A stretch of DNA of 64,000 bases, taken from the NCBI GenBank assembly GCA_036273515.1, contig DASUHM010000049.1:963-64962 (forward strand), read 5' to 3'. This document shows, in pieces, positions 30,787 to 64,000 of the stretch (the stretch's first letter is position 1; the number at the start of each line of letters is the position of its first letter). Made by a program: the position numbers and the translations under genes. The notes beneath the pieces are model-generated. The model worked only from the letters and a program-made list of their open reading frames with translations. It was not told the origin of the DNA and did not search any database. This DNA comes from Gaiellales bacterium. GTDB lineage: Bacteria; Actinomycetota; Thermoleophilia; Gaiellales; JAICJC01.

Positions 30787-31215
30787 TTGCTGCTCGGCGA
30801 ATCTGTCCAAAAGCTCGATGCCAAGAACCGCGTGACGCTTCCGGCGAAGCTGCGCCAGCACTTCGCCGACGGCGTGATCGTCGCGAAGGGCGTCGACAGG
30901 TGCCTGTCGGTCTACACGCCGGTCGGGTTCGAGGCGTTCGTCGACCGGCAGCTGGGGTCGCTCTCGCCGTTCAGCCGTCAGGCGCGGGCCATGAGCCGGC
31001 ACCTGTACGCGGGCGCGTCGGAGACCGAGCTCGACCGGCAGGGGCGCATCATGCTGCCGCCGGCCCAGCTGGCGCACGCGGGGCTCGAGCGGGACATCGT
31101 GGTGGCGGGGCTGCGGGACATGCTGGAGATCTGGGATCTCGCCACCTGGCGCAGGACGCAGGCCGAATCCGAGGGGAGCATTGAGGATGTTGCCGAATCT
31201 CTCTCACAGCAGTAG
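30787..31215 (+). CDS. mraZ: Transcriptional regulator MraZ
   Basis: A TTG start gives MLLGESVQKLDAKNRVTLPAKLRQHF, matching the canonical MraZ N-terminus. Second SpoVT/AbrB-like repeat ELDRQGRIMLP. Confidence 0.85.
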   Translation: MLLGESVQKLDAKNRVTLPAKLRQHFADGVIVAKGVDRCLSVYTPVGFEAFVDRQLGSLSPFSRQARAMSRHLYAGASETELDRQGRIMLPPAQLAHAGLERDIVVAGLRDMLEIWDLATWRRTQAESEGSIEDVAESLSQQ

Positions 31216-32158: not shown

Positions 32159-32547
32159 GCGTCGCCGTCTCGGCTCGGGCGCCCGCCCGCTCGCGCACCG
32201 CGCCCGAGCCCGCCGCCCCGCGGGCGGTTCCGCGCCGGCGCGTCCGCCCCCGGCGGATGACCGCGGGCGGCGCCGTGTGGGTCGTGATCCTGGCGACGCT
32301 GCTCGGCGGCATCGTGGCGCTGAACGTCGCCGCGCTCCGCGACAGCATCGAGGTGAACAAGCTCCAGGCGCGCGCCCAGCAGCTGCAGGACGAGAACCGC
32401 CTGCTGCGAAACGACGCCACCAACCTGTCGTCGCCGAGCGCCATCGGCATGGCCGCCGCCAAGCTCGGCATGGTGCCGGCAGACCCCAACACGACGCACT
32501 ACGTCCGCCTCCACCGGCCCCGCCCGAAGGTGCAGACCCGGCCGTGA
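32155..32547 (+). CDS. ftsL: FtsL-like cell division protein
   Basis: GTGA overlap. Basic N-terminus, single TM helix, short coiled coil. Conserved position between rsmH and ftsI. Confidence 0.6.
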   Translation: MSVAVSARAPARSRTAPEPAAPRAVPRRRVRPRRMTAGGAVWVVILATLLGGIVALNVAALRDSIEVNKLQARAQQLQDENRLLRNDATNLSSPSAIGMAAAKLGMVPADPNTTHYVRLHRPRPKVQTRP

Positions 32548-34346: not shown

Positions 34347-34359
34347 CCTTCGCGCGAGC

Positions 34360-37118: not shown

Positions 37119-38149
37119 AGCTCGTCCTCGCCTCGGGCGTCGTCGCCATGCTGCTCGGGATCGTGTCGGGGCCGGCGTTGATCGCCTTCCTGCGCCGGCA
37201 CGAGTTCGGGCAGCACATCCGCGAGGACGGCCCGGCCGGCCACGCCTCCAAGCAGGGCACGCCCACCATGGGCGGCCTGGGCATGCTCGGGTGCGCGCTG
37301 CTGGCCTTCCTGATCTTCACCGAGCACACCGGGCCCGGCCTGGCCGTCGCCGGGACGGCGCTCGCGTGCGCCGGGATCGGGTTCCTCGACGACTACCTGA
37401 AGCTGACGCGGAAGCGGTCGCTGGGCCTGTCGGGGCGATGGAAGCTCTTGCTGCTGGCGGCGGTCGTCGCCGGGGTGGGCGTCGTGGCGCACCGCGAGCA
37501 CCTCTCGACCGACCTCTACCTGCCGCTCTTGAACACCTACATCGCGCTCGGGCCGTTCTACTACGTGTTCATCTTCCTGGTCGTCGCCGGGGCGGCGAAC
37601 GCGGTCAACCTGACCGACGGGCTCGACGGTCTGGCGGCCGGCACCGTGACGATCGCCGCGCTCACGTATGCGGCGATGATGGTGGTCGCGTTCCTGGCCC
37701 ACAACGGCGTCTACCCGGGCCACACCATCGACGGCGTCTACGTGGGGAACCCCCGCGCCCTCGACCTCGCGATCATCGCGGCGGCGCTCGTCGGCGGCTG
37801 CGTGGGCTTCCTCTGGTACAACGCCTACCCGGCCGACGTGTTCATGGGCGACACGGGGTCGTTCGGGCTGGGCGGCGGCCTGGCGGCGCTCGCGATCTTC
37901 ACGAAGACGGAGGCGCTGCTCGTGGTCGTCGGCGGCGTGTTCGTGATCGAGGCGCTCTCGGTCGCGATCCAGGTCGTGTCGTTCCGGGTCTTCGGGAAGC
38001 GGGTGTTCCTGATGGCGCCGCTGCACCATCACTTCGAGATGATGGAGTGGACCGAGAACAAGATCATCGTCCGCTTCTGGATCACGGCGGCGATCTTCGG
38101 CGCGAGTGGCTTCGTCCTCTACTACCTCTTCTTCTCGAGCTACCGGTGA
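37115..38149 (+). CDS. mraY: Phospho-MurNAc-pentapeptide translocase
   Basis: GTGA overlap. Polytopic membrane protein. Motifs KQGTPTMGG, NAVNLTDGLDGLA, HHHFE. Confidence 0.9.
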   Translation: MKLVLASGVVAMLLGIVSGPALIAFLRRHEFGQHIREDGPAGHASKQGTPTMGGLGMLGCALLAFLIFTEHTGPGLAVAGTALACAGIGFLDDYLKLTRKRSLGLSGRWKLLLLAAVVAGVGVVAHREHLSTDLYLPLLNTYIALGPFYYVFIFLVVAGAANAVNLTDGLDGLAAGTVTIAALTYAAMMVVAFLAHNGVYPGHTIDGVYVGNPRALDLAIIAAALVGGCVGFLWYNAYPADVFMGDTGSFGLGGGLAALAIFTKTEALLVVVGGVFVIEALSVAIQVVSFRVFGKRVFLMAPLHHHFEMMEWTENKIIVRFWITAAIFGASGFVLYYLFFSSYR

Positions 38150-39426
38150 GCGGGCGCTACCTGGTCGTCGGGCTGCGCCGTTCGGGGATCGCGGCGTGCG
38201 AGGCGATCGCGCGGGTCTGGCCCGGTTCCGAGATCCTGGCGGCCGACCGCGGCACCGACCTCGACGTGTCGCGGCTCTCCGCGCTCGGGATCGAGCCGCG
38301 GCTGGGCGGCGAGCTCGCGCCCGTCGACGGCCTCACCGCGCTCGTGAAGAGCCCGGGCGTGCCCGGCGAGGCCCCCCAGGTGGCGGCGGCGCGGGCGGCC
38401 GGCGTGCCGGTGTGGAGCGAGGTCGAGCTGGCGGCGCGGATGATGCCGGAGAACCCGATCGCCGGGGTCACCGGGACGAACGGCAAGACGACGACCACGC
38501 ACCTGCTCGGCGCGATGCTGCGCGCCGGCGGGATCGAGGCGGAGGTGGCGGGCAACGTCGGCCGCGCGCTGACCGAGCTGCCCGGCCGCGTGGCGGCGGG
38601 GACGTGGATCGCCTGCGAGCTCTCGAGCTTCCAGCTCGAGGACATCCACCGCTTCCGCTGCCGGGTGGCGGTGATCCTGAACGTGACGCCCGACCACCTC
38701 GACCGCCACGGCAGCATGGAGGAGTACGTGCGCTGCAAGCTGCGCATCCTCGAGAACCAGGTCGCCGGCGACACCGCCGTCCTGAACGGCGACGACCCCG
38801 TGCTGCGGGCGGCCGACCTGCCGGGTGCCGGGACGCGCGAGTGGTTCGCGGCGAGCGAGCCGGGGCCGCTCGACTGGGAGCACGCCCGCCTGCGCGGGCA
38901 GCACAACCTCGAGAACGCGGTCGCCGCCGCGGCCGCCGCGCGCGCGGTTGGGGCGAGCGACGCGGCCGTGAACGCGGCACTGCGCGACTTCGATCCGCCG
39001 CCGCACCGGCTCCGGCCGGTCGCCGCGGCCCGGGGCGTCGAGTGGGTAGATGACTCGAAGGCCACGAACCCCGACGCGACGGTGAAGGCGCTGACGGCCT
39101 TCGACCACGGCGTCCACCTGATCCTGGGCGGCTCGCGCAAGGGCGGATCGTTCGCCGGGATGGCCGTGGCGATCGCGGCCGGGCCGGTGGCGCGCTCGTA
39201 CCTGATCGGCGCGTCCGCCGACGCGATCGCCGCAGCCCTGGACGCTACCGGCGCCGGCTACGTGCACTGCGGGACGCTCGAGCGGGCCGTGGCCGACGCC
39301 TCCGCCGCGGCCGCCGCCGGCGACACGGTCCTGCTCTCGCCGGCCTGCGCCAGCTTCGACCAGTTCCGCGACTACGAGCAGCGCGGCGAGCGCTTCGCCG
39401 AGCTCGCCCGCGCCGCCGCTGGATAA
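38146..39426 (+). CDS. murD: UDP-MurNAc-L-Ala:D-Glu ligase
   Basis: GTGA overlap. GVTGTNGKTTTT P-loop. Position after mraY. Confidence 0.9.
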   Translation: MSGRYLVVGLRRSGIAACEAIARVWPGSEILAADRGTDLDVSRLSALGIEPRLGGELAPVDGLTALVKSPGVPGEAPQVAAARAAGVPVWSEVELAARMMPENPIAGVTGTNGKTTTTHLLGAMLRAGGIEAEVAGNVGRALTELPGRVAAGTWIACELSSFQLEDIHRFRCRVAVILNVTPDHLDRHGSMEEYVRCKLRILENQVAGDTAVLNGDDPVLRAADLPGAGTREWFAASEPGPLDWEHARLRGQHNLENAVAAAAAARAVGASDAAVNAALRDFDPPPHRLRPVAAARGVEWVDDSKATNPDATVKALTAFDHGVHLILGGSRKGGSFAGMAVAIAAGPVARSYLIGASADAIAAALDATGAGYVHCGTLERAVADASAAAAAGDTVLLSPACASFDQFRDYEQRGERFAELARAAAG

Positions 39427-39478
39427 CCGGTGCCAGGCACCGCGATTTCATGCAGGTGACCGCGGCCGCGCGGCGAAC

Positions 39479-40825
39479 ATGTCCATGGGTTCCTTGGGGG
39501 TGCCTGTGGCGAGGTTGCACGCGATCAACGACAGCGGGGGGAGCGGAGAGGCCGCGGAACGGCGGGCGCAGGCCCGACGGCGCAGCTCGAGCTCCCACCA
39601 GATCGAGTACCACCTGCTGCTCCTGCTCACCCTCGGGCTGGTCGCCTTCGGCCTGATCATGGTCTACAGCGCGTCGAGCGGCATCGCCGTCGTGAACGGC
39701 GCCAACCCGCTCTCGCCGCTGATGCGCCAGGGGATCTACGCCGTGCTCGGCGTCGGCTGCATGGTCGGCGCCGCCCGGTTCCGCTACAAGCGCCTGCGGA
39801 TGCTGGCGCCCCTGCTCATGCTGATGGCGCTGATCGGGCTCGTGATGGTGAAGGTGCCGGGGATCGGCGTGCGCATCAACGGCGCCGAGCGCTGGATCGT
39901 CGCCGGGCCGCTGACGCTGCAGCCCTCGGAGTTCGCGAAGCTCGCGATGGTCGTCTTCTGCGCCGCCGTCCTCACCGCGCGGAAGCGCCCGCCCCGCACC
40001 ATCAAGGAGCTCGTGAACCCGGTCGGGCTGGCCGCCCTGATCGTGTGCGGCCTGGTCGCGCTCGAGCCCGATCTGGGCACGACGATCGCGATCGCCGTCA
40101 TGGTCACGGGCGTCCTGATCGTCGCCGGCACGCCGTTCCGGCTGCTCGTCGGCACGGCCGGGATCGTCTCGGCCGGCGCCGCGCTCGTCATCTCCCAGAA
40201 CGCCTACATGCACGCCCGCCTGCTCGCGTTCATGCACCCCTGGCAGGATGCCGGTGGCAGCGGCTACCAGAACGTGCAGGCCCTGCTCTCGCTCGGATCG
40301 GGCGGCATCTGGGGCAAGGGCCTCGGCCAGGGCACCGTCAAGAACGGGTACCTGCCGGAGGCGCCGAGCGACATGATCGCCGCCGTCATCGGCGAGGAGC
40401 TGGGCCTCATCGGGATCCTCGTCACCGTGCTCGCATTCGCCGCCTTCGCGGTGCTCGGCTTTCGGATCGCGATGCGCACGAAGGACCCGTTCGGCAAGTT
40501 TCTCGCCACCGGGATCACCTGCCTCGTCACCGGCCAGGCCGTCGTGAACCTGGGCGCCGTGCTCGGCTTCCTGCCTCTCACGGGCGTCCCGTTGCCGCTG
40601 ATAAGCTCAGGCGGATCCAGCCTGATCGTGTTCCTCACCCTGATCGGGACGCTCCTGAACGTCGCCGACAGCGAGCGGGCAGTCGCCCGCAAGGCAGTGC
40701 CCGCCGATGACACCGCCGCCAGCCGCAAGCGACCCCGGCCGCAGCCCGCGGGTGCTGATCGCCGCCGGAGGAACCGCAGGCCACGTCGTGCCGTCGCTGG
40801 CGGTGGCCGCCGAGCTCACGGCTAG
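39479..40825 (+). CDS. ftsW: FtsW/SEDS family peptidoglycan polymerase
   Basis: Polytopic SEDS pattern (GLGQG..K..YLPEAPSDMI, PLPLISSGGSS). The Arg-rich C-terminal tail overlaps murG. Confidence 0.85.
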   Translation: MSMGSLGVPVARLHAINDSGGSGEAAERRAQARRRSSSSHQIEYHLLLLLTLGLVAFGLIMVYSASSGIAVVNGANPLSPLMRQGIYAVLGVGCMVGAARFRYKRLRMLAPLLMLMALIGLVMVKVPGIGVRINGAERWIVAGPLTLQPSEFAKLAMVVFCAAVLTARKRPPRTIKELVNPVGLAALIVCGLVALEPDLGTTIAIAVMVTGVLIVAGTPFRLLVGTAGIVSAGAALVISQNAYMHARLLAFMHPWQDAGGSGYQNVQALLSLGSGGIWGKGLGQGTVKNGYLPEAPSDMIAAVIGEELGLIGILVTVLAFAAFAVLGFRIAMRTKDPFGKFLATGITCLVTGQAVVNLGAVLGFLPLTGVPLPLISSGGSSLIVFLTLIGTLLNVADSERAVARKAVPADDTAASRKRPRPQPAGADRRRRNRRPRRAVAGGGRRAHG

Positions 40826-41804
40826 GGGCGCCGATGTCGTGTTCGCCGGCACCCCCGAGCGGATCGAGTCCCGGCTCGTCCCCGCCGCCGGCTACCCGCT
40901 GCACACCTACCACGTCACCGGCTTCCCCCGGAAGCCGTCGCTCGGCCTCATCCGGGGGCTCGGCCTGGCGGCCGTCGCGCCGGCGGCGTGCACGCGCATC
41001 CTCCGCCGCGTGCGGCCGGACGTCGTCTTCGGCGGCGGGGGATACGTGGCGGGGCCGATGCTCGCCGCTGCCGCCGGCATGCGCATCCCTGCGGCGCTGA
41101 TGGAGGTGGACGCCCACCTCGGCCTCGCCAACCGGATGGCCGCCCCGTTCGCGCGGCGCGTGTTCCTCTCGTTCCCCATCGGCGACCTGGGCCCGCCCCG
41201 CTACCAGCTCACCGGCCGGCCCGTGCCGCGGGCGGTGCTCGACGCGACGGCCGAGCAGGGCCGGCGCGAGTTCGACCTGCCGGCCGACCGCCGGGTCGTG
41301 CTCGTCTTCGGCGGCAGCCTCGGCTCGACCACGCTGAACCGGGCCGCCACCGCCGCCTGGGCAGCCGACGACCCCGGCTTCACCGTCGTCCACATCACCG
41401 GCGAGCGCGAGTTCGCGCTCTCGTCCGGGCGGGCGGCGGCGCACTACCGCGTGCTGCCGTACACGGCGAGCCTGGGGCCGCTGCTGGCCGCCGCCGACCT
41501 GGTCGTCTCGCGGGCCGGTGGGTCGGTGTTCGAGATCGCCGCCGCCGGCCGGCCCGCGATCCTCGTGCCCTCGCCGAACGTGACCGCCGACCACCAGTCG
41601 CGGAACGCCGAATTCATCGCCGACGGCGGGGCCGCCATCGTCATCGGCGACAACGAGCTGACCGCCGTGCGGCTCGCCACCGAGGTCGACAAGCTGCTCG
41701 CAGACCCCGACCGGCTGACCGGAATGTCGGAGGCCGCCCGCCGGCTGGCGCGGCCTGACGCCGGCGAGCGGATCGCGACCGAGCTCCTGGCGCTGGCCCG
41801 ATGA
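40707..41804 (+). CDS. murG: Lipid I N-acetylglucosaminyltransferase
   Basis: AAGGTAGHVVPSLAVA N-terminal motif and GGS...SRAGGS..E C-terminal motif. Alternative GTG start at 40752. Confidence 0.9.
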   Translation: MTPPPAASDPGRSPRVLIAAGGTAGHVVPSLAVAAELTARGADVVFAGTPERIESRLVPAAGYPLHTYHVTGFPRKPSLGLIRGLGLAAVAPAACTRILRRVRPDVVFGGGGYVAGPMLAAAAGMRIPAALMEVDAHLGLANRMAAPFARRVFLSFPIGDLGPPRYQLTGRPVPRAVLDATAEQGRREFDLPADRRVVLVFGGSLGSTTLNRAATAAWAADDPGFTVVHITGEREFALSSGRAAAHYRVLPYTASLGPLLAAADLVVSRAGGSVFEIAAAGRPAILVPSPNVTADHQSRNAEFIADGGAAIVIGDNELTAVRLATEVDKLLADPDRLTGMSEAARRLARPDAGERIATELLALAR

Positions 41805-43147
41805 CGCTGGCCGACCGGAGGCTGCACATGATCGGGATCGGCGGCGCCGGCATGTCGGCGTTGGCCGTCGTCGCATACGCCTGGGGCGCCGACGTGTCGG
41901 GGTGCGACCGCACGCCGTCGGAGTACTCGCTGCGCCTGCGCCGGTTCGGCATCGACGTCTCGGAGGGGCACGATCGCGGCCACCTCGAGCCCGGCATGGA
42001 GGTGGTCGTCTCCTCGGCCGTGCCCGACGAGCTCGACGAGCTGGCCGCGGCGTCCGAGCTCGGGCTGCGCGTGCTGCACCGGGGCGAGCTGCTGGCCCAG
42101 CTGGTGGCCGAGCGGCGCTCGATCTGCGTCGCGGGCGCGCACGGGAAGACGACGACGACGGCGATGCTCGCCTTCGCGGCCGACCGGATCGGGCTCGATC
42201 CGACCTGGCTCGTCGGCGGCGAGGTGCCGCAGCTCGGCGGCAATGCCGGACCGGGCGGGGGAGACCTGCTGATCGCGGAGGGGGACGAGTCCGACGGCAG
42301 CTGCGCGCTCCTGCGCCCGCGCGTCGCCGTGATCACGAACGTCGACCTCGATCACCACGCTCGCTACGCGTCGGTGCACGACGTCGAGCGCCTGTTCGCC
42401 GAGTGGGTCGCGCACGTGCCCGCGGACGGGGCGGTGGTGCTCGGCGACGGCGTCGCCCTGCCGGCCGGGGCGGCGCCCGTTGTGCGGTTCGGCTTCGACG
42501 AGGGCGCCAATTGGCATATCAGCGGCTTCCACAGCGGCCCGGAGGGGTCGCGGTTCTGGCTCTCGGTGCCCGACGAGCTCCCGGTCGACGTCACCCTGCG
42601 GGTGCCCGGCGCCCACAACGCTCGCAATGCCGCCGGCGCGATCGCCGCCCTGGCCGCGGCCGGGGCGAGCGCGGCCGATGCGGCCGCGGCGCTCGCCGAG
42701 TTCACCGGCGTCGGCCGCCGTTTCGAGGTGCGCGGGCGGGTCGCCGGGGCGACCGTCGTCGACGACTACGCGCACAACCCGGCCAAGGTCGCCGCCGCCA
42801 TCGACGCCGCCCGCACGCACGCGCCGGCACGCGTGGTGGTCTGCTTCCAGCCCCACCTCTACTCACGCACGGCCGCGTCGGCGCACGAGTTCGGCGGCGC
42901 GCTGGCCGGCGCCGACGAGGTGGTCGTCACCGAGATCTACGCCGCCCGCGAGCGGCCCCAGCCGGGGGTGACCGCGAAGCTCGTCGTCGACGCCCTGGCG
43001 GAGCGGCGGCCGGGGATGCCGCTCGCCTACATGCCGGGACTGGGCGACGCCGCCGCCTACCTGCGCGGGCGCGTGCGCGAGGGCGACCTCGTCCTCACCG
43101 TCGGCGCGGGCGATGTCCGCAGCGTGGGCGACGAGCTGCTGCGATGA
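41801..43147 (+). CDS. murC: UDP-MurNAc:L-Ala ligase
   Basis: ATGA overlap. GIGGAGMSALA and AGAHGKTTTT motifs. Confidence 0.9.
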   Translation: MTLADRRLHMIGIGGAGMSALAVVAYAWGADVSGCDRTPSEYSLRLRRFGIDVSEGHDRGHLEPGMEVVVSSAVPDELDELAAASELGLRVLHRGELLAQLVAERRSICVAGAHGKTTTTAMLAFAADRIGLDPTWLVGGEVPQLGGNAGPGGGDLLIAEGDESDGSCALLRPRVAVITNVDLDHHARYASVHDVERLFAEWVAHVPADGAVVLGDGVALPAGAAPVVRFGFDEGANWHISGFHSGPEGSRFWLSVPDELPVDVTLRVPGAHNARNAAGAIAALAAAGASAADAAAALAEFTGVGRRFEVRGRVAGATVVDDYAHNPAKVAAAIDAARTHAPARVVVCFQPHLYSRTAASAHEFGGALAGADEVVVTEIYAARERPQPGVTAKLVVDALAERRPGMPLAYMPGLGDAAAYLRGRVREGDLVLTVGAGDVRSVGDELLR

Positions 43148-44037
43148 GCGCCGTTCCCGCCTGCGTCGAGCCGGACTACCCGGTGTCGCGGCTGACCACG
43201 GTCGGCACGGGCGGCCGGGCGCGCTTTCTTGCCCGGCCCGGCACCGGCGCCGAGCTGGCCGGGGTGCTGAGCTGGGCCGATGCGGGCGCGCTCGACGTGG
43301 CCGTGGTCGGGCTCGGCTCGAACCTGCTGGTCGCCGACGAGGGCTACGACGGCGTCGTCCTGCGCCTGGCCGGCGGCCTCGCCCGGATCGAGCGCGACGG
43401 CGAGCGGGTCGTGTGCGGCGGCGGCGCCTCGCTGGCCGCCGTCGTGAAGCGGGCGACCGGCTGGGGCCTCTCCGGCATCGAGTTCGGATGCGCCATCCCG
43501 GGCACGGCCGGCGGCGCGGTGCGGATGAACGCGGGCGCGTACGGCGGCGAGCTGCGTGACGTGCTCGACAGGGCGGTGGTGGTCGGCGCCGGCGGCGAGC
43601 GGGCCGGCGGGCCGGACGAGCTCGGCATGCGCTACCGGCACTCGAACGTCGGGCCGCGCGAGGTCGTCGCCGAGGCGGTGCTGCGGCTGCGGCCCGACGA
43701 CACGGAGCGGATCCGGGCGACCGTGGCCGACATGCAGCGGCGCCGGCGCGAGGCCCAGCCGGCCAAGGTGCGCACGTTCGGGTCGGTGTGGAAGAACCCG
43801 GGCGGCGACCTGTCCGCCGGGCGCATCCTCGAGGAGTGCGGGCTCAAGGGCTTCACGGCCGGCGGCGCCCGCATCTCGCCGGTGCACGCGAACTTCATCG
43901 AGAACACGGGCGATGCTCGCTCCGCCGACGTGATCGCGCTGATGCAGGAGGCGCGGCGGCGGGCCCGCGAGCGCTTCGGCGTGGAGCTCGAGCACGAGGT
44001 GCAGATGCTCGGGCCGATCGGGCTTTCAGATGGTTGA
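43144..44037 (+). CDS. murB: UDP-N-acetylenolpyruvoylglucosamine reductase
   Basis: ATGA overlap. FAD-binding GLGSNLLV. C-terminal MurB domain (GSVWKNP, ISPVHANF). The last codons and stop lie inside the repeat at 44028. Confidence 0.9.
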   Translation: MSAVPACVEPDYPVSRLTTVGTGGRARFLARPGTGAELAGVLSWADAGALDVAVVGLGSNLLVADEGYDGVVLRLAGGLARIERDGERVVCGGGASLAAVVKRATGWGLSGIEFGCAIPGTAGGAVRMNAGAYGGELRDVLDRAVVVGAGGERAGGPDELGMRYRHSNVGPREVVAEAVLRLRPDDTERIRATVADMQRRRREAQPAKVRTFGSVWKNPGGDLSAGRILEECGLKGFTAGGARISPVHANFIENTGDARSADVIALMQEARRRARERFGVELEHEVQMLGPIGLSDG

Positions 44038-44132
44038 TCGGCAGCTCCCGTGACAGCCGCAGCCCACGAGCGCCCCGAACGCCCGCCAACAGCCTGACGT
44101 CCGGGCGCGCGCGAGCTGCCGATCAACCATCT
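44028..44132 (-). mobile_element. 105-bp MITE-like element (truncated family member) between murB and ftsQ
   Basis: Perfect 20-bp terminal inverted repeats, AGATGGTTGATCGGCAGCTC (44028-44047) and its complement (44113-44132). The interior matches elements at 56915 and 51550 in reverse orientation, including an exact 17-mer at 44086-44102 = revcomp of 56944-56960. Confidence 0.6.
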
Positions 44133-44180
44133 TGGCGCCTGCCTGATCCGGCAGGATCCATCCGCCGTCCGGCGAACTGG

Positions 44181-44975
44181 ATGGACATGGCAGCTGCCCA
44201 CGTCGACCCTGCGCTGGTGCTGCGCCGGCGGGCGCTCCGCCGATCGGAAGGCCGCCGCCGGCTGGCGGTGCTGGTCGGGGTGATCGCGATCGTGCTGCTC
44301 CCGCTCGGCTGGTGGGTCCTCGAGAACTCGTCGATCTTCGCCGCCTCGCAGGTGGCCGTCACCGGGGCGACGCCCGAAGTGGACGCGCTCGTTCGCGCCG
44401 CGGTCGTCCACGACGTCGCCGGCAAGAGCCTCCTCAAGGTCGACGCCTCGTCGCTCGCGGCCCAGATCGAGGCCATCCCCGACGTGAAGAGCGCGAGCGT
44501 CGACCGCGCGTTCCCGCACACCGTCGCCGTGTCGATCGTCATGGAGCGGCCGGCCGCGCTCGTGCGCGCCGGCAAGGCGAGCTACGTCGTCTCCGTCGAC
44601 GGCCGCGTCCTGCGCGCCGCGAAGAAGGCCTCCGCCACCATGCCGCGGCTCGTGCTGCCGCCGAGCTCGCAGCCGGCCGCCGGGCGTACCGTCGACTCGG
44701 CCCAGATGCGGTCGGCCCTGCGTGTCCTCGCCGTCGCGCCGCACCGGTTCCCCGCGAGCATCGCGAGGCTCAAGAAGATCGTGGCGTCGCCGGGCGGCGT
44801 CGTGGCGGTGTTCGGCCACGGGCTGCAGGTGCGCCTGGGCACCGCGGGGTCGCTCGACCTGAAGCTCCACGTCGCCGCCCGCGTGCTCGTCCGGATGGGC
44901 GATTCGATCCGCCGCTCGGTGGCCTACGTCGACGTGTCGGCGCCGGCCCGGCCGGCCATCGGCTACAAGAAATGA
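44181..44975 (+). CDS. ftsQ: Cell division protein FtsQ/DivIB
   Basis: Basic N-terminus, TM helix, POTRA-like VAVTGA...V, FtsQ-type C-domain. Position before ftsZ. Confidence 0.75.
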   Translation: MDMAAAHVDPALVLRRRALRRSEGRRRLAVLVGVIAIVLLPLGWWVLENSSIFAASQVAVTGATPEVDALVRAAVVHDVAGKSLLKVDASSLAAQIEAIPDVKSASVDRAFPHTVAVSIVMERPAALVRAGKASYVVSVDGRVLRAAKKASATMPRLVLPPSSQPAAGRTVDSAQMRSALRVLAVAPHRFPASIARLKKIVASPGGVVAVFGHGLQVRLGTAGSLDLKLHVAARVLVRMGDSIRRSVAYVDVSAPARPAIGYKK

Positions 44976-45017
44976 CCCTCGAGTTGAGGTGGAGGGTTAG
45001 CCCTCCTAACCATCTGC

Positions 45018-45046
45018 TTGACACCGAGAGTCGAGGCGAGTACCCT
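45018..45046 (+). promoter_or_regulatory. Candidate ftsZ-proximal promoter TTGACA-17-TACCCT
   Basis: Consensus -35 at 45018-45023, 17-nt spacer, TANNNT-type -10 at 45041-45046. Preceded by a GGAGGG-TTAG-CCCTCC hairpin (44991-45006). Confidence 0.4.
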
Positions 45047-45152
45047 CCCCGAAGCGCCCGACCGGCAGCCTGGCTACGCTGTGCCCGCGGGGAGGGCAGT
45101 TCGCGCAGTCAGACTCGAACCCTCCAGTAGAGGTTCAGGTTAGGGGAGGCAG

Positions 45153-46256
45153 ATGAGAGATCCGAGTGGCAACTATCTGGCGGTCATCAAAGTCGTCGGC
45201 GTGGGCGGTGGCGGCACCAACGCCGTGAACCGCATGGTGGACGCCGGGCTGCGCGGCGTGGAGTTCATCGCCGTCAACACCGACGCCCAGGCGCTGCTCA
45301 TGTGCGACGCCGACGTGAAGATCCACATCGGCTCGAAGATCACGCGCGGCCTCGGTGCCGGCGCGGATCCGACGATCGGTCTCGAGGCTGCGACCGAGAG
45401 CCGCGACGAGCTGAAGGAGGCGCTGAAGGGCGCCGACATGGTCTTCGTCACGGCCGGTAAGGGCGGCGGCACCGGCACCGGTGCGGCGCCCGTGATCGCC
45501 GAGATCGCCCGCGAGCTGGGAGCGCTCACGGTCGGCGTCGTCACCCGCCCGTTCGGGTTCGAGGGACGCAAGCGCGCCGACCAGGCCGAGGGCGGCATCC
45601 GCCAGCTGCGCGACAAGGTCGACACGCTCATCATCATCCCCAACGATCGCCTCCTCCAGGTGGTCGAGAAGCGCACCTCGATCGTCGACGCGTTCCGGAT
45701 CGCCGACGACGTCCTGCGCCAGGGCGTCCAGGGCATCACCGACCTGATCACGGTCCCCGGCCTGATCAACCTCGACTTCGCCGACGTGCGCACGATCATG
45801 CGCCAGGCCGGGTCGGCGCTGATGGGCATCGGCGTGGCCGGCGGCGAGAACCGCGCCGCCGAGGCCGCCAAGGCGGCGATCTCCTCGCCGCTGCTCGAGG
45901 CCTCCGTCGAGGGCGCCACCGGCATCCTCCTGAACATCACCGGCGGGTCCGACATGGGCCTCTTCGAGGTGAACGAGGCGGCCGAGATCATCGGCAGCGC
46001 CGCCGACAGCGACGCGAACATCATCTTCGGCGCGGTCATCGACGAGCAGCTGGGCGACCAGGTGCGGGTGACGGTCATCGCCACGGGCTTCGACCGGAAC
46101 AGCCCCGACCGGCCCGCGGCGGCGTTCGCCGCCGGCGGCCGCCGCGAGCAGCAGCAGCCGCGCCGGCCCGAGCCTCCGGCCGACACGCGCGACACCGGGC
46201 AGTTCCAGATGCCGCCCGACGCGCTCGAGATCCCGTCGTTCCTGCGGGACGAGTAG
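45153..46256 (+). CDS. ftsZ: Cell division GTPase FtsZ
   Basis: Tubulin signature [29 protein letters not shown]-terminal LEIPSFLR peptide. Confidence 0.95.
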
Positions 46257-57164: not shown

Positions 57165-57485
57165 GTGTACGGATCCCTGCATGTCTCCGAGTCGATCACG
57201 CGCCTCTCGGTCGCGGGCGTCGTCCTGTGGGTGAGCCTCACGGCCCTCGTCGCGACGGTCGTCGGCGTCGCCGCGTGGTCGGCCGGGAACGCCACCGCGA
57301 CGCGCTACACGCCTGCCGTCGTGCGCCAGATCCAGGGCCAGGCCTACGTCCGCGGGCTGGCCGCCGGGAGCGAGCGGACGAGCCATGCCGGGAACGGCCG
57401 CAAGCGGATCGACACGCTGCGCAGGAAGAGCTACGAGCGAGGATATTCGGCCGGCTACCGGGCCGGACAGGCGGCCGCACCCTGA
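57165..57485 (+). CDS. Hypothetical membrane-anchored protein
   Basis: GTG at 57165 preceded by GAAGGGGGAAG. One TM helix (LSVAGVVLWVSLTALVATVVGVAAW). Confidence 0.45.
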   Translation: MYGSLHVSESITRLSVAGVVLWVSLTALVATVVGVAAWSAGNATATRYTPAVVRQIQGQAYVRGLAAGSERTSHAGNGRKRIDTLRRKSYERGYSAGYRAGQAAAP

Positions 57486-57578: not shown

Positions 57579-57917
57579 GTGGGGGTCTACCTGCTGCAGC
57601 ATCTGGCCCAGTGGGCCGCAGCCACGGCGTTCCTCGCGACGCTGGGGTGTGTCATCGCCGCCGCGCTCGGCATCCAGATGTCTGCGTCGGCCCTGATGCC
57701 CGGCGACGCCGCCTTCGCGCTCGCGCGCACGATGGCGATCCTGGGCGGCTCCGCGGTGATCGTGGCGGGCTTCTCGAGCACCCTCTACTTCTGGCTGATC
57801 GGGGTCGCATCCGACCGCGCGGCGCTCACGGTCGGCGCCGGCACGCTGGCGGTCGGCCTCGTGTTCGTCGGCATGATCGGCATGCTGAACGAGCGCGGCC
57901 ACGCCGCCCACCGCTGA
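57579..57917 (+). CDS. Hypothetical polytopic membrane protein
   Basis: 112 aa with 3-4 hydrophobic helices. Confidence 0.45.
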   Translation: MGVYLLQHLAQWAAATAFLATLGCVIAAALGIQMSASALMPGDAAFALARTMAILGGSAVIVAGFSSTLYFWLIGVASDRAALTVGAGTLAVGLVFVGMIGMLNERGHAAHR

Positions 57918-57948: not shown

Positions 57949-58194
57949 ATGCGCGAACGGCTGCGCAGCCGGGCGGTCCTGATCGCCGCGATCGCCGCGG
58001 TGGCGCTGGCCGTGCTCGGCACCTACACCTGGAACCAGACCGCGCCGACGCGCTGCCCGAAGGTGGGCGTGTGCCTGGAGGGCCAGACCCACAAGGTGCA
58101 CCCGCTGCGCGCCCGGATCGAGTGGGCGGCGGCCGTCGTGATGGTGGTGGGCGCCGCCAGCCTGGCGGTCACGGGCCGGCGCCGGCGGGAATAA
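57949..58194 (+). CDS. Hypothetical two-TM small protein
   Basis: 81 aa. TM helices at both ends around a C-x5-C loop (CPKVGVC). Confidence 0.4.
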   Translation: MRERLRSRAVLIAAIAAVALAVLGTYTWNQTAPTRCPKVGVCLEGQTHKVHPLRARIEWAAAVVMVVGAASLAVTGRRRRE

Positions 58195-58256: not shown

Positions 58257-61200
58257 CTACGCGGCCAGGCGCATGTCGGCGGCCGCCCAGGCCGCGAGCG
58301 CGGCGGCGTCGGCCGCGAGCACCGGCCGTCCGGCCGCCCGGGCGAGCCGCTCGTGGCCCGCGCAGCCGTCGTGCAGGGGCACGTAACCGTCGACGCCGGC
58401 GTGCAGACGCGGGCCGTCGGCGCCGGCCAGCGAGTGGGTGAGGATGACGATGTCGGCGCACTCGTCCAGGCTGACCCCGGCGTCGGCGGCCGCGTCGAGG
58501 ACGCGCTGGGTGCAGGCTTCCTCGCGGGGCGCGCTGCGCGGATCGGCGAGCAGGAAGAGGCACGCCCCCGTGCCGGGGCGCACCCCGCCGACCCAGGCGG
58601 CGAGCAGCTCGCCGAGGCGGTCGTCCCCGCGCCAGGCGGGCGTCGCCAGCAGGCGGATGCGGGCCGGGTCGAGCTCGAGCGGCGCCGGCTCCGGAAGGGC
58701 ATGCAGCGGCGGGCGGGCGGCCAGCGCGGCGATCCGCTCGCGGTAACTCTCGGCCACGACGGCCCATGAAAGCTTCTCCGCCGCCTCGCGGCCGGCGAGA
58801 CCGCGCGTCCCCCGACCGTCCGCGTCGGCGACGGCCGCGAGCAGCAGCTCGCGCAGGTGCCCGGGATCGGGCTCGAGCATCCACGGCCGGCCGGCGGTGA
58901 CCCACTTGCCGGCCCGGTCCTCGTCGTACTCGCGCCGCTCGGCCCGGATCCGCCAGCAGGCCTCGTCGGGGCAGAACTCGTCGGTGGGGCCGCCCGCGGT
59001 CACCACGACCGGCAGGCCGCACGCCATCGCCTCGAGCACGGGCATCCCGAAGCCCTCGCCGCGGTAGGGGTGCACGAGGACGTCGCAGGCGCGGTAGAGC
59101 GACGCCACCTCCTCGGTCGTCATGTCGCGGTGCAGGTAGACGATGCGCGGGCTCTGGCCGGACTCGGCGTAGTCGCGCAGGCGGCTGCGGTCGGACATCG
59201 GGTAGATGCCGTCCGCGCCGAAGTCCTTGACGATCAGGGTGACGTCGTCGCGGCCGGCGAAGACCTCGAGGAAGGCGGAGATGAGCAGGTCGGGGCCCTT
59301 GCGGTCGATCAGGCCGCCCACGAAGAGGATCCGCAACCCCGGCGCGTCGAGCTCCATGCGCGGGCCTTCGGGCGCGAACATCTCCAGGTCGACGCCGTTC
59401 GGGACGACGGCGACGCGGCCGGCCTCCACGCCGGAGGCGACGTACACGTCGCGGACGTGGGCGCTCGGCACCCACAGCTCGTCGACGTTCGCGTTGATGC
59501 CCTCGACCCACTCGACCGGGGCCGCGCCGAACTCCCACGGCTGGATCACCGCGAGCCGCCCCGACGCCGCCGGTCGCAGGTCGGGCGGGAACTGGTGCCG
59601 CACCTCGACCTGGGCCGGCAGCGGCAGCGCCGGGCCGCCGCCCTGGCCGGTGCGGGAGACGCGCTCGAGCGCAATCCCGTCGGCGGCCCCGAGCAGCTCG
59701 CACACGCTGCGGTTGACGCCGGCGAGGCTCTGGGTCGAGCCGTGGTCGCCCTGCCAGCGGACGCTGACCGGCGCGACGCCCGTGTGGTCGCGGCGCGGCC
59801 GCTCGCCGCGGTAGTAGGCCTCGAGCTCGTCGACGTGGGCGGCGAACGACCGCGGCGCGGCGATGTTCGCCTGGAGCCGCTCGAGCAGGCCCGGCTCGCT
59901 CGCCAGGCGGTCGAGCTGGCGGGCCAGGTCGGCGCCGTCGCGGCCGTCGAAGAGCAGGCCGTTCTCGCCGTCGGCGACGAAGTCGGGGATGCCGCCCATG
60001 CGGGCGGCCAGCACCGGCACGCGGCCGGCCAGGCACTCCGAGACCATCAGCGGCGCGCAGTCCCACCAGACCGACGGGATGACGGCGACATCGACAGAGG
60101 CGAGCAGCTCGGGCAGGTCGCCATGGCCGAACGTGCCGCAGATCTCGACCACGCCGCGGGCGTCGCGGGCCCGCAGGTCGGCGGCGAACCGCTCGGGCAC
60201 CTCGCCGTGGATGCGCACCCGAATGTTCGCCTCGGTGCGCTGGGCGGCGTCGATCAGGAGGCTCGGCCCCTTCTGCGGCAGCGCCGAGCCGAAGAAGCCG
60301 ACGACGAGCTCCTCGCCGATCCGGCCGGGAACGCGGTCACGGCCGAGCGCCGCCCAGATCGCCTCGTCCTCCGGCATCGCCTGCGGCACGACGTCGATCG
60401 CGTCGGCCGGGAACCCGGCGCCGGCGAGCGTGGCCCGCATCGCCTCGGACACCGCCAGGCACACGTCGATGCCGCGGCTGAAGCGGCCGCGGATCTCGCT
60501 CAGGCGGCGGCGGTAGGCGTCGGCGTCGAGGCTGCCGACGCAGGCGGCGCAGTCGCCGCCGCGGTCGCCGGGGCCGTGGCAGAGGTCGAGCGTGTCGGTG
60601 AACAGGTAGCCGCGCGGACAGGCCAGCCAGTAGTTGTGGGTCGTGAACAGCGACCGGATGCCGCGCACGGCGGCCTCGTCGATCAGCGCGGCGCCGAGGT
60701 TGTGCAAGTTGTGGAAGTGCACGGCGTCGGGGCGGACGCGGTCGAGCAGGTCGGCGAACGCGCGCGTGATCGGCGGGTCGTCGACCTCGCGGTCGGGATG
60801 GCCGAGGTCCATGAGGCCGTGGGGGCGGTTGAAGACGCCCACGAGGCGGACGCCGTCCTGCCACCACTCGCGCACCTGGTAGGGCTCTGCGGGCTCGATC
60901 CGGCCGACGGCGGCGTGGAACACGGTGACGTCGTAGCCGCGCCGGGCGAGCTCCTGCGACACCTGCCGGGGGACGATCGTGCCGCCGCCGGAGTCGTCGT
61001 AGCCGAAGGAGGTCATGACGATCCGGGGCCGAGCGGCCAGGCCGCGCTCGCGCAGGCGGGCGGCGAGCTCGGGCAGGGGCAGCGCGCGCCGCTCGAGCGC
61101 GTCGGCCAGGAGCACGAGCGCGCCCTGCTCGGTGGCCGCCTCGGGCGCCAGCACGCGCCAGTCCTCGCGCTCGATCGCGGCCTCGAGCGCGCGGGAGACC

Positions 61201-61874
61201 TCGTCGATCTCGCGGGCGCGGGCGGACTCGTCCGAGAAGTTGCCGCCGTGGCGGCGGTAGCGGATGAGCGGGCCCGGCCCGGTGTGGCGGAAGCGGAACC
61301 GCGGCGCCGCCCGCAGCCACAGGTCGAAGTCGTTGCACATCGGGTAGTCGGCGCTGTAGCCGCCCACCTCGGCGTGGACCCGGCGGTGGATCATCGTGGT
61401 CGGGTCGACCAGGTAGTTGTGGCGGCGCACGAGCATCTGCACCATGCCCTCCCGGTCGAACTCAGGGCACCGCCACTCGCCGACGACCTTGCCGGTGCCG
61501 TCGATCGTGACCGCGTCGCCGTGCACGATGGCCGTGTCCGCGTGGGCGTCGAACACGGCGACCTGGCGGCTGAGCCGGTCGGGCAGGGCGATGTCGTCGT
61601 GGCCGATGCGGGCGATCAGCTCGCCGCGGGCGTGCTCGACGATCGCGTTGTAGGCGGCGGCGATGCCGCGGTTCTCGGGGTGCGTGACGACGCGGACGCG
61701 CGGGTCGTCCGCGTAGCGCGCGATCACGTCGGGTGTCGAGTCGGTCGAGGCGTCGTCGACGATCAGGAGCTCGAAGTCGGCGTAGTCCTGGGCCAGGCAG
61801 CTCTCGATGGCCTCGGCCAGGTAGCGCTCGCCGTTGTAGGCGGCGATGGCGAACGTGACGCGGGGCGTGCTCAC
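58257..61874 (-). CDS. 1205-aa multi-domain glycosyltransferase (GT2 + two GT4/GT-B modules + C-terminal domain)
   Basis: aa 5-230 are GT2 (AAYNGERYL, LIVDDASTD, GHDD). aa about 285-660 are a GT-B module with a CHGPGDRGGDCAAC insert. aa about 760-1010 are a GT4 module (EGFGMPVLEAMACGLPVV). GTGA overlap with the upstream gene. Confidence 0.8.
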   Translation of the reverse strand: MSTPRVTFAIAAYNGERYLAEAIESCLAQDYADFELLIVDDASTDSTPDVIARYADDPRVRVVTHPENRGIAAAYNAIVEHARGELIARIGHDDIALPDRLSRQVAVFDAHADTAIVHGDAVTIDGTGKVVGEWRCPEFDREGMVQMLVRRHNYLVDPTTMIHRRVHAEVGGYSADYPMCNDFDLWLRAAPRFRFRHTGPGPLIRYRRHGGNFSDESARAREIDEVSRALEAAIEREDWRVLAPEAATEQGALVLLADALERRALPLPELAARLRERGLAARPRIVMTSFGYDDSGGGTIVPRQVSQELARRGYDVTVFHAAVGRIEPAEPYQVREWWQDGVRLVGVFNRPHGLMDLGHPDREVDDPPITRAFADLLDRVRPDAVHFHNLHNLGAALIDEAAVRGIRSLFTTHNYWLACPRGYLFTDTLDLCHGPGDRGGDCAACVGSLDADAYRRRLSEIRGRFSRGIDVCLAVSEAMRATLAGAGFPADAIDVVPQAMPEDEAIWAALGRDRVPGRIGEELVVGFFGSALPQKGPSLLIDAAQRTEANIRVRIHGEVPERFAADLRARDARGVVEICGTFGHGDLPELLASVDVAVIPSVWWDCAPLMVSECLAGRVPVLAARMGGIPDFVADGENGLLFDGRDGADLARQLDRLASEPGLLERLQANIAAPRSFAAHVDELEAYYRGERPRRDHTGVAPVSVRWQGDHGSTQSLAGVNRSVCELLGAADGIALERVSRTGQGGGPALPLPAQVEVRHQFPPDLRPAASGRLAVIQPWEFGAAPVEWVEGINANVDELWVPSAHVRDVYVASGVEAGRVAVVPNGVDLEMFAPEGPRMELDAPGLRILFVGGLIDRKGPDLLISAFLEVFAGRDDVTLIVKDFGADGIYPMSDRSRLRDYAESGQSPRIVYLHRDMTTEEVASLYRACDVLVHPYRGEGFGMPVLEAMACGLPVVVTAGGPTDEFCPDEACWRIRAERREYDEDRAGKWVTAGRPWMLEPDPGHLRELLLAAVADADGRGTRGLAGREAAEKLSWAVVAESYRERIAALAARPPLHALPEPAPLELDPARIRLLATPAWRGDDRLGELLAAWVGGVRPGTGACLFLLADPRSAPREEACTQRVLDAAADAGVSLDECADIVILTHSLAGADGPRLHAGVDGYVPLHDGCAGHERLARAAGRPVLAADAAALAAWAAADMRLAA

Positions 61875-64000
61875 GCGGCCCGCCGCGCGAGCAGGCCGCC
61901 GAGGATGCGTTCGAGGGCCGCCTCGCAGGCGCCCAGGCCGAGTGTCTCGGAGACGAGCTCGCGGCCGCCGGCCGAGAGCTTCGCCCAGAGGCCGTCGTCG
62001 GCCTCGAGCCGCATCATGGCGTCCGCGAACTCCGCGGCGGTGTCGGCTATCAGCATCCCGCGCTCGGGCCGGGCGAAGCCCTCGGCGGCGATGGTCGTGC
62101 CGACGACCGGGACGCCCGCGGCCAGCGACTCGCCCACCTTGCCCTTGAGGCCCGCGCCGAAGCGAAGCGGCGCGATCGAGATGCGCCGGGCGGCCAGCTC
62201 GGCGTCCATCGACGGCAGGAAGCCGCGCGGCTGGGCGCCGGCCGCGCTTGCGAGCGCGGCGAGGTCGTCGGGCATGTTCGCGCCGGCGACGACGACAGGG
62301 TTCTCATGGCCGGCGGCGTGGAGCAGGGGCATGACGTCCGCGCAGAGCCAGCGGACGGCGTCGGCGTTGGGCGCGTGGCCGTAGCTGCCGACGAACAGCG
62401 ACCCGCGCCGGCCGGCCAGCGGCGCCACCGTCTCGGCGACGCGGTGGACGTTCCCGAGCACCTGCACGTCGGCGCCGGGCAGGAGGCCGGCCAGCAGGGC
62501 CCGCTCGTCCTCCGTCACGGCGAGGACGACGTCGGCGGCGGCGTAGACGGCCAGCTCCTGGGCCCGGCCGTGGTCGGCGCGGACGACGGCGACCTGGTCG
62601 CCGGCGAGCTCGGCGGCCCGGCGCATGCGCACGAAGTGGACGTCGACCGAGTCGACGGCGATCCGGGTGCGCGGCGTGACGGCGCGCAGTACGGGGACGG
62701 CCCGTGCGGCAAGGGTGTGGAACGAGACGATGGCGGCGTCGAAGCCCCGCCGCAGCAGCGCGTCGAGGTCGTCGCCGCGGTCGGTCGCGGCCACCTCGAT
62801 CCCGCTGCCCGCGAACCGCTCGGCGGCGGCCTCGTAGCCGGTGGATGTTTCGCAGGCGAGGGTCGTGCGGTAGCCCAGGCGGCGAAGCGCGAAGGCGATC
62901 TCGGACGCCCGGGTATGGCCCGCGCTTCTGCTCGGCTCGGGCATGTCGGGGTAGAAGAACAGGACCGACTCGCGCTCGCCGGGCGGGCCGGAGCGGCGGG
63001 GGACGCGGCGCGCGGGCGGCGTCACCCGGCCGCGGGCGAGGTCAGAGCCCGGCGCCTCACGGGCGGCGCGCATCCCCAGGTCGACGGCCTGGCGGATCCG
63101 CGCCTCGAGCGGGATGTCGGCGGCCGAGATGGCGGCCAGCTGGTCGGCGGTCTCGCCGGCCAATTGGCATTCGTCGCGTGTGTCAATTGCGATGTCGGCC
63201 GGCGTTTGCTCGTAGCGCACCGTCTCGACGCCGTTTCGGAACGCGCGCAGCGCCATGTAGCCCTCGTCGACCTTGTCCGCCTCGATGCGGTGGCCGACGC
63301 CTGCGGCGGTCACATAGCGGCCGTCGCCCAGGCCGAGCCGGTGCACGTGGGTCGCGGCCATGAACTCCTCGCCGCCGAGGCTGCCGCCCTCGCCGGCGCC
63401 GAACTGGACGTCGAACCCGCCGACGGCGTCGAGGATCGCTCGGCGGACGCCCCAGTTGCCGCCGTACACCTCGGCGCGGCCGGGGAACTCGAAATCGGCG
63501 TCGCCCAGCGAGAGCCCGCCGAAGAAGGACTCGAGGCCGGCGGCAGGCCAGCCGGCGGGGCGCTCGGCCGGCCAGAGCGGGTAGATCGGGCCGCCGGCGA
63601 TCACGACCCGCGGGTCGCAGAACGCGTCGCGCAGGCTCTCGATCCAGCCCGGCGCCGGGCGGGCGTCGTCGTCGAGGTAGACGAGCAGGTCGTTCGCGGC
63701 CACACGAGCGCCGGCGTTCCGGGCCCGCGAGAGCCCGGCGATCGGCTCGCGCACCACGCGCACGTGCGGGCCCAGCTCGATCTCGAGCGGGGTCACGCCG
63801 TTGTCGACGACGACGATCTCGCCGCCGTCGGCGAGGACGCCGTGGGCGGTGCAGGCTGCGACGCACTCGGAGACCTCGTCCGGGCGGTCGCGGGTGCACA
63901 GGATCACGCTCGCGGCCGGCCCGCAGGAAGCCCGGCCGACCCGCGACTCGGCGACGACGGCCAGGCCCCCGCCGGCAGCAGCCGCGGTCAGAAGCTCATG
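61871..64000 (-). CDS. Multi-domain glycosyltransferase (GT2 + GT4-like), 5' end beyond the window
   Basis: GT2 core (VILCTRDRPDE, YLDDD) and C-terminal GT-B motif (GAGLKGKVGESLAAGVPVVGT). The frame stays open from 63907 to base 64000, so the ORF-track start is probably internal. Confidence 0.75.
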   Translation of the reverse strand, partial: HELLTAAAAGGGLAVVAESRVGRASCGPAASVILCTRDRPDEVSECVAACTAHGVLADGGEIVVVDNGVTPLEIELGPHVRVVREPIAGLSRARNAGARVAANDLLVYLDDDARPAPGWIESLRDAFCDPRVVIAGGPIYPLWPAERPAGWPAAGLESFFGGLSLGDADFEFPGRAEVYGGNWGVRRAILDAVGGFDVQFGAGEGGSLGGEEFMAATHVHRLGLGDGRYVTAAGVGHRIEADKVDEGYMALRAFRNGVETVRYEQTPADIAIDTRDECQLAGETADQLAAISAADIPLEARIRQAVDLGMRAAREAPGSDLARGRVTPPARRVPRRSGPPGERESVLFFYPDMPEPSRSAGHTRASEIAFALRRLGYRTTLACETSTGYEAAAERFAGSGIEVAATDRGDDLDALLRRGFDAAIVSFHTLAARAVPVLRAVTPRTRIAVDSVDVHFVRMRRAAELAGDQVAVVRADHGRAQELAVYAAADVVLAVTEDERALLAGLLPGADVQVLGNVHRVAETVAPLAGRRGSLFVGSYGHAPNADAVRWLCADVMPLLHAAGHENPVVVAGANMPDDLAALASAAGAQPRGFLPSMDAELAARRISIAPLRFGAGLKGKVGESLAAGVPVVGTTIAAEGFARPERGMLIADTAAEFADAMMRLEADDGLWAKLSAGGRELVSETLGLGACEAALERILGGLLARRAA

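Follow-up and report, generated by a model that had tools for sequence, protein, structure and literature searches.

What does a single polypeptide carrying three glycosyltransferase (GT) modules do in a bacterium of the Gaiellales? The question is raised by a 64,000-nucleotide stretch of high-GC DNA (70-78% GC; contig DASUHM010000049.1; hereafter the window, meaning the whole stretch analysed), in which reading-frame, Pfam, homolog, codon-GC and AlphaFold2 analyses delimit a reverse-strand gene at 58257..61874, stop codon included, for a soluble tri-modular protein of 1205 amino acids (aa) with the arrangement GT2, GT4, GT4 and C-terminal domain. An earlier sequence-only reading suggested that this protein could be a polymerase of a glycan exported by an ATP-binding-cassette (ABC) transporter. 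A role in flagellar-regulon protein glycosylation fits better, and with modest confidence we assign the protein, as a soluble transferase with three functions, to a cytoplasmic island for protein O-glycosylation that is under sigma-28 control and probably acts on flagellin. As a multidomain GT the protein is of an ordinary kind; its family is uncharacterised, is restricted to Thermoleophilia and has a new C-terminal domain and a conserved insert with four cysteines (Cys4).

Architecture of the 1205-aa protein

The gene begins with a GTG codon that overlaps the TGA of the gene upstream (GTGA), and this 4-nt overlap is also kept at the orthologous locus L001. GC content by codon position is 0.78/0.50/0.98, the third-position value identifying the coding frame. 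Among 5.8 billion proteins searched, 568 matched below E 1e-10; identity to the query is 53-95% for the best 120, and more than 100 homologs are 1197-1255 aa long and cover 97-100% of it. An exact look-up of the protein in public assemblies gave no record. Because the homologs share the full length, a frameshift or a merger of genes is ruled out, and the fusion of all modules in one frame, as first read from the sequence, is coding and intact. Two length variants occur: proteins of ~1570-1700 aa have an additional GT2 fused to the N-terminus, which in other loci is a separate gene with a 4-nt overlap, and proteins of ~930 aa lack the N-terminal GT2.

The N-terminal GT2 module has a GT-A fold and spans aa 4-230 (61185..61865; this and all other domain coordinates are on the reverse strand), against aa 5-230 in the sequence-only reading. 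It is recognized by Glycos_transf_2 at aa 9-134 (PF00535, 2.4e-32) and Glyco_tranf_2_2 at aa 12-228 (PF10111), and it carries the motifs DDAS at 40-43, HDD at 92-94 (the DXD motif) and NDFD at 181-184, in which D93, D94 and D182 are invariant in the homolog alignment, as expected of a CAZy-type inverting GT2. A helical linker at aa ~236-280 (61035..61169) joins it to the next module; the linker matches no Pfam family and is not a long coiled coil, and in the AlphaFold2 model its helices (~aa 239-279) run from 234-237, 244-257 and 263-274 in model numbering (protein numbering is five higher).

The first GT4 module, of GT-B fold, occupies aa ~283-690 (59805..61028), where a GT-B module with a Cys-rich insert had been placed at aa ~285-660. 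Glyco_transf_4 (PF13439, PF13579) covers aa 296-498 and Glycos_transf_1 (PF00534) aa 519-670, with fold matches in support. SGGGT at 295-299, K535 and D605-x7-E613 mark its active site; G296-T299, K535, D605 and E613 are invariant, D-x7-E being a conservative variant of E-x7-E, and the module has the features of a CAZy-type GT4. Its N-lobe contains the Cys4 insert (60540..60620; C419, C432, C442 and C445), which includes CHGPGDRGGDCAAC at aa 432-445. All four cysteines are invariant in 31 and in 45 homologs, so that the insert is a conserved feature and plausibly a structural metal site, putatively for zinc.

The second GT4 module, again of GT-B fold, extends over aa ~700-1050 (58725..59777). 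Pfam detects only Glyco_trans_1_4 (PF13692) at aa 848-965, and the N-lobe is visible solely in the AlphaFold2 model, as strands and helices at aa 698-818; the GT4 module predicted earlier at aa ~760-1010 thus exists, but with limits that were too narrow. RKG at 858-860 and a canonical E940-x7-E948 are present, with R858, K859, E940 and E948 invariant, in keeping with a CAZy-type retaining GT4. Because their catalytic motifs are invariant, all three GT modules look active, one as an inverting GT2 and two as retaining GT4s, rather than one functional GT between degenerate flanks. Conservation runs along the whole protein, C-terminus included, and peaks in the second GT4 (0.84 at aa 921-960). All NCBIfam matches fell below threshold and were spread over diverse GT2 and GT4 equivalogs, so that no specific function is transferable.

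AlphaFold2 modelled aa 6-1205 with high confidence (predicted local distance difference test (pLDDT) 90.6, predicted template modelling score 0.83) with a GT-A domain followed by a short helical linker, two complete GT-B domains and, at the C-terminus, an alpha/beta domain. Neither a hydrophobicity scan nor the model revealed a transmembrane segment, a membrane-association element or a long coiled coil. Foldseek found single-domain relatives only (E 1e-13 to 1e-16, 16-26% identity): MshA (3c4q), ManT (7qsg) and GlgM (6tvp) for the GT4 modules, and K4CP (2z86) and SpsA (1qg8), which the GT2 module matches by sequence as well as by fold. These enzymes share fold and nucleotide-binding motifs with the 1205-aa protein, but each resembles one domain only; the four-Cys insert, the fusion and the C-terminal domain are absent from all of them. 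A Pfam 'GT4-conflict' match prompted consideration of a role in defence; a PADLOC scan gave no defence-system match, and the hit is attributed to cross-reactivity of GT4 models.

The C-terminal region of roughly 130 aa, noted earlier as being of unknown function, proved to be a confidently folding domain of about 140 aa without a described family. Residues ~1050-1205 are covered by no Pfam family; modelled alone, aa 1051-1205 reached pLDDT 92.1 with a small Rossmann-like beta-alpha-beta topology, and the domain proper is placed at aa ~1068-1205 (58260..58673) from this separate model together with Foldseek and profile searches. Foldseek against the PDB returned nothing below E 5e-3; its weak matches include many GT-B enzymes (WaaC, OGT, SenB, trehalose-6-P synthase), with TM-scores up to 0.54, and also ThiF and histidinol dehydrogenase. 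A profile of the domain matched no PDB sequence and only 143 proteins among 1.84 billion representatives. Apart from fragments of the family itself, its weak matches are to other enzymes that modify glycans (GT2, GT4, sulfotransferase and giant GT/methyltransferase/TPR proteins), in which a similar domain is mostly C-terminal or nearly so, and to one methyltransferase that has it at the N-terminus. Alignment with the protein's own GT lobes by hhalign was not significant (best E 0.017, to the first beta-alpha-beta unit of the second GT4 C-lobe), and for this reason descent from a GT lobe is only a suggestion. Conserved polar residues (D1085, D1111, D1141, H1158, H1168 and R1176) suggest a binding site and not a mere spacer. 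We propose a non-catalytic or ligand-binding Rossmann-like domain, which might serve in docking of the acceptor or a partner, or in nucleotide binding. The earlier suggestion of a terminator or chain-length module finds no echo in the Foldseek and PDB sequence searches, which showed no resemblance to known terminators; since the domain is not a kinase, methyltransferase or coiled coil, a terminator or ruler role is without support.

A proposed glycosylation island with flagellar links in relatives

The operon continues beyond coordinate 64000 and was read from the orthologous loci L001 (an 83%-identical ortholog on a 4.28-Mb chromosome), L084 and L085. Directly upstream of the 1205-aa GT gene, and translationally coupled to it through the GTGA overlap, lies a reverse-strand gene at 61871..64000 that is cut by the window end; its last ~700 residues are present and are 75% identical to L001 7347-10004, an 885-aa GT2-GT2-GT-B protein. 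In the relatives the operon runs from a cytidine diphosphate (CDP)-glucose-4,6-dehydratase-like gene (an assignment from the best NCBIfam match, which is below cutoff) through a GT2-TPR gene and the 885-aa GT gene to the 1205-aa GT gene, which is last. The TPR at the C-terminus of the operon GT2 is genuine, and the GT2-TPR arrangement is that seen in protein O-glycosyltransferases such as GmaR, FlmG and OGT. A divergent operon encodes glucose-1-phosphate cytidylyltransferase (339 bits for TIGR02623, whose cutoff is 300), a split transketolase-like thiamine-diphosphate enzyme and a DegT-type aminotransferase, plus a formyltransferase in L085, and would make a CDP-activated modified hexose. The island thus holds seven GT modules and a CDP-sugar pathway, and no primer, flippase, ABC exporter, polymerase or ligase was found within 10 kb on either side at L001, L084 and L085. 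Soluble transferases, nucleotide-sugar genes within the island and no lipid-carrier machinery are features expected of a flagellin glycosylation island.

The island sits at a fixed chromosomal site, on the gltX side, and its sugar and GT content varies among relatives while the 1205-aa GT is constant. At L084 7090-8421, for example, a GT2 protein with a SEC-C motif is encoded, plus FdtA-type and DAO-type sugar-modifying genes. By analogy, variable content at a fixed site is typical of flagellin glycosylation islands, and the constancy of the 1205-aa GT within variable islands indicates that it probably builds a conserved part of the glycan. In the mechanism we propose, the island would assemble an O-linked oligosaccharide on the protein itself, in the cytoplasm and ahead of export; the most likely acceptor would be flagellin, to whose glycan the 1205-aa GT may add about three consecutive sugars, possibly forming a conserved core.

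The comparison with known flagellin glycosylation islands (Pseudomonas syringae Fgt1/Fgt2, Listeria GmaR, Caulobacter FlmG and the Clostridioides difficile type B GTs) brings out soluble transferases, nucleotide-sugar genes, variable content, a TPR-bearing GT, no export genes and, in a sister clade, GT genes beside flagellin. The differences are that three GT modules and a new C-terminal domain are here united in one polypeptide, and that flagellin is not adjacent in the clade of the window; no sequence relation to Maf, FlmG or GmaR was found either, though no search aimed at one was made. To our knowledge, an architecture of three GTs and such a C-terminal domain has no counterpart among known flagellin glycosylation systems. 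In P. syringae, fgt1 and fgt2 lie beside fliC and are linked to a trisaccharide (PMC3402453, PMC3927599); FlmG has been described (PMC7591256). A functional parallel for the fusion itself is A111/114R of chlorovirus PBCV-1, in which three GT domains act on a protein-linked glycan (PMC7826918): as in the activity proposed here, a single protein with three transferase activities lengthens an oligosaccharide already bound to protein, and no lipid carrier takes part. The parallel is confined to function: A111/114R is a eukaryotic-virus enzyme of different GT families acting on an N-linked glycan.

The family's distribution links it to flagellin. Hundreds of full-length homologs were found, all in Thermoleophilia, and the closest relatives of the window are soil metagenome-assembled genomes labelled Gaiellales, Thermoleophilia or 'Actinomycetes'. 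A survey of one genome per species located at least 365 loci, 80 of which were fetched for neighbourhood analysis. Among cultured strains, Conexibacter sp. DBS9H8 encodes a homolog (L056). A neighbour-joining protein tree has three groups: the window's clade (Gaiellales-type, beside gltX), a large sister clade (Solirubrobacterales, Conexibacter, Baekduia and Thermoleophilaceae) and a small third clade. A flagellin gene lies within 10 kb in 42 of 55 sister-clade loci, and in 34 of the 37 that have at least 8 kb of upstream flank. All 42 flagellin genes share the strand of the GT homolog, from which they are separated by a median of ~1 kb, and they stand at the end of fliPQR-flhBA-flhF-PilZ clusters. 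At L058, homologs of the 1205-aa GT and of its upstream gene flank two flagellin-sized genes, one of which was matched to flagellin; L075 and L054 unite flagellin, the GT homolog and cytidylyltransferase homologs, joined in L075 by transketolase-like and GT2-TPR homologs; and L087 has the nonulosonic-acid genes NeuB, DegT and WbqC. The window's protein is 55-58% identical to these flagellin-linked orthologs over its full length, with all four domains conserved. As a separate observation on these loci, a CHAP-domain protein of ~210-260 aa (peptidoglycan hydrolase type; L002 8030-8806 and ~25 flagellar-clade loci) is encoded near flagellin and the GT gene, frequently between them, and may be a flagellum-associated cell-wall lytic enzyme.

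Promoter analysis suggests that this link extends to the window's own clade. Upstream of flagellin in 39 large-clade loci we found a conserved CTCAAGT-N13/14-GnCGATnA, the classical sigma-28 (FliA/SigD) form; a matrix trained solely on these 39 promoters was then scanned over the window's clade and the third clade, 21 loci in all. In seven of the nine closest relatives of the window, the top two sites of the entire 23 kb coincide with the pair of divergent promoter-like elements of the glycosylation island, and in L005 and L006 the island sites rank first and third; island scores are 10-25.7, against a 99.99th percentile of 9.2. The sites stand back to back in the ~90-170 nt that separate the cytidylyltransferase gene from the head of the GT operon (L001 5045-5138, and likewise in L004, L005, L006, L009, L013, L018 and L068). 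Each of these promoter-like elements ends ~8-11 nt before its start codon, as with GCTCAAGTTCCCCCGCCGTACCGCCGATGG in L004, ~8 nt ahead of the ATG, which suggests leaderless or near-leaderless transcripts. In the more distant loci L016, L037, L055, L063, L071 and L077 a site lies immediately upstream of the GT gene itself. Compared with first-order Markov simulations, 33 sites score at least 16 (1-6 simulated) and 15 score at least 20 (0-1 simulated), counts that are not independent because the loci are related. Scanned with the same matrix, the window contains no such site, consistent with an operon promoter ~2.9 kb beyond its end. That sites in this clade match a matrix built on a different gene in a different clade would otherwise be hard to account for.

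These patterns bear on an unexplored subject, the O-glycosylation of flagellin and other proteins in deep-branching soil Actinomycetota, and on a family that occurs in at least 365 species-level genomes without a characterised member. If our interpretation is right, the gene would be a conserved marker for the Thermoleophilia glycosylation island, the enzyme would be a compact three-activity tool for glyco-engineering, and the sigma-28 regulon is predicted to reach a locus far from the flagellar genes. The new accessory domain and the Cys4 insert are targets for structural study. We caution that a multi-GT fusion alone is no evidence for an ABC-transporter-dependent polymerase.

Weighing the acceptor and the chemistry

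Several observations weigh against a flagellar role. Sigma-28 orthologs such as WhiG govern non-flagellar genes in some Actinobacteria, and the promoter-like sites were read in relatives whose proteins are 81-92% identical, the operon start lying ~2.9 kb outside the window. No flagellin or other flagellar gene is present in the 64-kb window, nor within 10 kb in any of 13 window-clade loci. The main weakness is that flagellar genes are not established for the source genome or its clade; a search with the L058 flagellin was saturated by close relatives, all 120 matches listed being at least 82% identical to the query and lying on short contigs. The Gaiella occulta genome has 36 COG-N genes (PMC6741124), which gives only a hint. 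Literature on flagellin glycosylation in Thermoleophilia (Conexibacter) was not found, and that on motility of Gaiellales and Gaiella held nothing decisive. The whole flagellin linkage is guilt by association.

One alternative changes the acceptor: in the window's clade the island would modify another secreted or surface protein, such as a pilin or cell-envelope protein, or build a cytoplasmic oligosaccharide or glycolipid, and the flagellin link would be specific to the sister order. The 0/13 count of nearby flagellin genes is what this predicts, the cultured Gaiella is described as non-motile, and a GT2-TPR gene would suit any protein acceptor. A Tad pilus locus lies within the window, three small clade-specific membrane proteins are encoded beside the GT gene (both described below), and the best fold matches include an enzyme of cytoplasmic polysaccharide, ManT (7qsg). 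We nevertheless consider this alternative improbable because the matrix derived from sister-clade flagellin promoters also fits the promoters of the operon, because the protein retains all four domains and its full-length identity to flagellin-linked orthologs, and because the island contains no conserved candidate acceptor gene.

Spelled out with a lipid carrier and an ABC transporter encoded elsewhere, the interpretation offered by the sequence-only reading is that the protein is a template-independent polymerase of a repeat-unit glycan, with the C-terminal domain as terminator or chain-length module. GT2 and GT4 fusions are typical of such enzymes: Escherichia coli O9a WbdA, Klebsiella/Raoultella WbbB and Geobacillus WsaE, all polymerases of ABC-transporter-dependent glycans, likewise fuse several GT modules in one soluble or peripheral polypeptide and combine GT4 with GT2 chemistry. 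Fold matches include the chondroitin polymerase K4CP and the capsule multienzyme 8qoy, other large GT/methyltransferase/TPR proteins, possibly O-antigen-type enzymes, finish in a domain similar to the C-terminal one, and an LCP-like protein is encoded ~37 kb away in the window. ABC_tran and ABC2_membrane genes also lie directly downstream in L003, L034 and L040, an observation that tells against a flagellar role as well, but this ABC-2 pair occurs in only 3 of 80 loci, which are closely related and of the flagellar clade.

The genomic context does not fit a polymerase. Unlike the WbdA, WbbB and WsaE systems, the locus has no linked wzm/wzt, WecA-type primer or carbohydrate-binding Wzt partner, and no terminator (WbdD kinase/methyltransferase or GT99 Kdo transferase) or coiled-coil ruler. 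Pfam analysis of 40 further genes in the 58 kb of window downstream revealed no ABC-2 (wzm/wzt) pair, Wzx/Wzy, ligase, terminator kinase or methyltransferase, and the only PNPT-type gene there, a candidate priming transferase, is MraY inside the dcw cluster. Beyond coordinate 64000, where the sequence-only reading had proposed looking for transporter, primer and sugar-nucleotide genes, the relatives show only the last of these: no ABC exporter, priming transferase or terminator is encoded within 10 kb in L001, L084 and L085. The 1205-aa GT itself contains no kinase, methyltransferase, Kdo transferase or coiled coil that could act as terminator or ruler, and it lacks a membrane-association element. 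A polymerase would also leave both the flagellin adjacency and the sigma-28-type promoters unexplained, and we therefore regard it as unlikely.

A bolder version of the flagellin interpretation makes the polypeptide a complete machine, which would start the glycan on Ser/Thr of flagellin and add the next two sugars, its C-terminal half-GT-B-like Rossmann module docking the protein substrate or a partner; it would then found a new, Thermoleophilia-restricted class of flagellin GT. Some flagellar-clade loci have seemingly just the CHAP-domain gene between flagellin and the GT gene, which is compatible with such self-sufficiency. We hold the complete-machine version to be doubtful.

Finally, long shadow reading frames do arise in high-GC DNA, but that the 1205-aa frame is itself such an artefact, whether as a chance frame, as frameshift-merged genes or as a single functional GT with degenerate flanks, is already refuted by its GC at third codon positions, its full-length homologs, the invariant catalytic motifs of all three modules and the confident predicted fold of all four domains. 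A frame of the shadow kind is indeed present on the opposite strand: the antisense 1175-aa reading frame at 58857..62384 (+), over the GT gene and its upstream neighbour, has an Arg/Ala/Gly-rich low-complexity translation and was rejected as a gene.

Other genes of the window

Between the GT gene and gltX, and convergent with the GT gene, are three small genes on the forward strand for predicted membrane proteins of 81, 112 and ~105 aa (57949-58194, 57579-57917 and ~57170-57485); their order and sequence are kept within the window's clade only, and they match no Pfam family. A scan for promoter and terminator consensus sequences downstream of the GT gene found none. Beyond the membrane-protein genes and gltX follow housekeeping genes, glycine cleavage genes and a whole dcw cluster. 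The cluster, assigned by Pfam, lies at 30751-46256 (+) and comprises mraZ, rsmH, ftsI, murE, murF, mraY, a gap at the expected murD, ftsW, murG, murC, ftsQ and ftsZ, followed by the glycine cleavage genes. Since the dcw and glycine cleavage genes are syntenic with L001 and L084, the place of the glycosylation island on the chromosome is fixed.

The Tad/Flp-type pilus locus is at ~15300-20021 (+) and encodes a CpaB-like protein, a CpaF/TadA-type ATPase (~17560-18694) and two T2SSF proteins (TadB/TadC); its upstream part, at 15.2-17.5 kb, has 78% GC and a strong AT skew, and reading frames there are hard to call. At 20388-23203 (+), an LCP-like protein (LytR_cpsA_psr, a weak match at E 6e-5 that narrowly misses the Pfam cutoff) is followed by DUF929 and VKOR-family proteins; the cluster may be related to the cell envelope and to disulfides. 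Another glycan locus of the window, unrelated to the island, lies at 4417-8171 and consists of a GH10 xylanase-family gene (+), a 475-aa synthase-like GT2 (Glyco_trans_2_3, -) and an NAD-dependent sugar epimerase/dehydratase (-).

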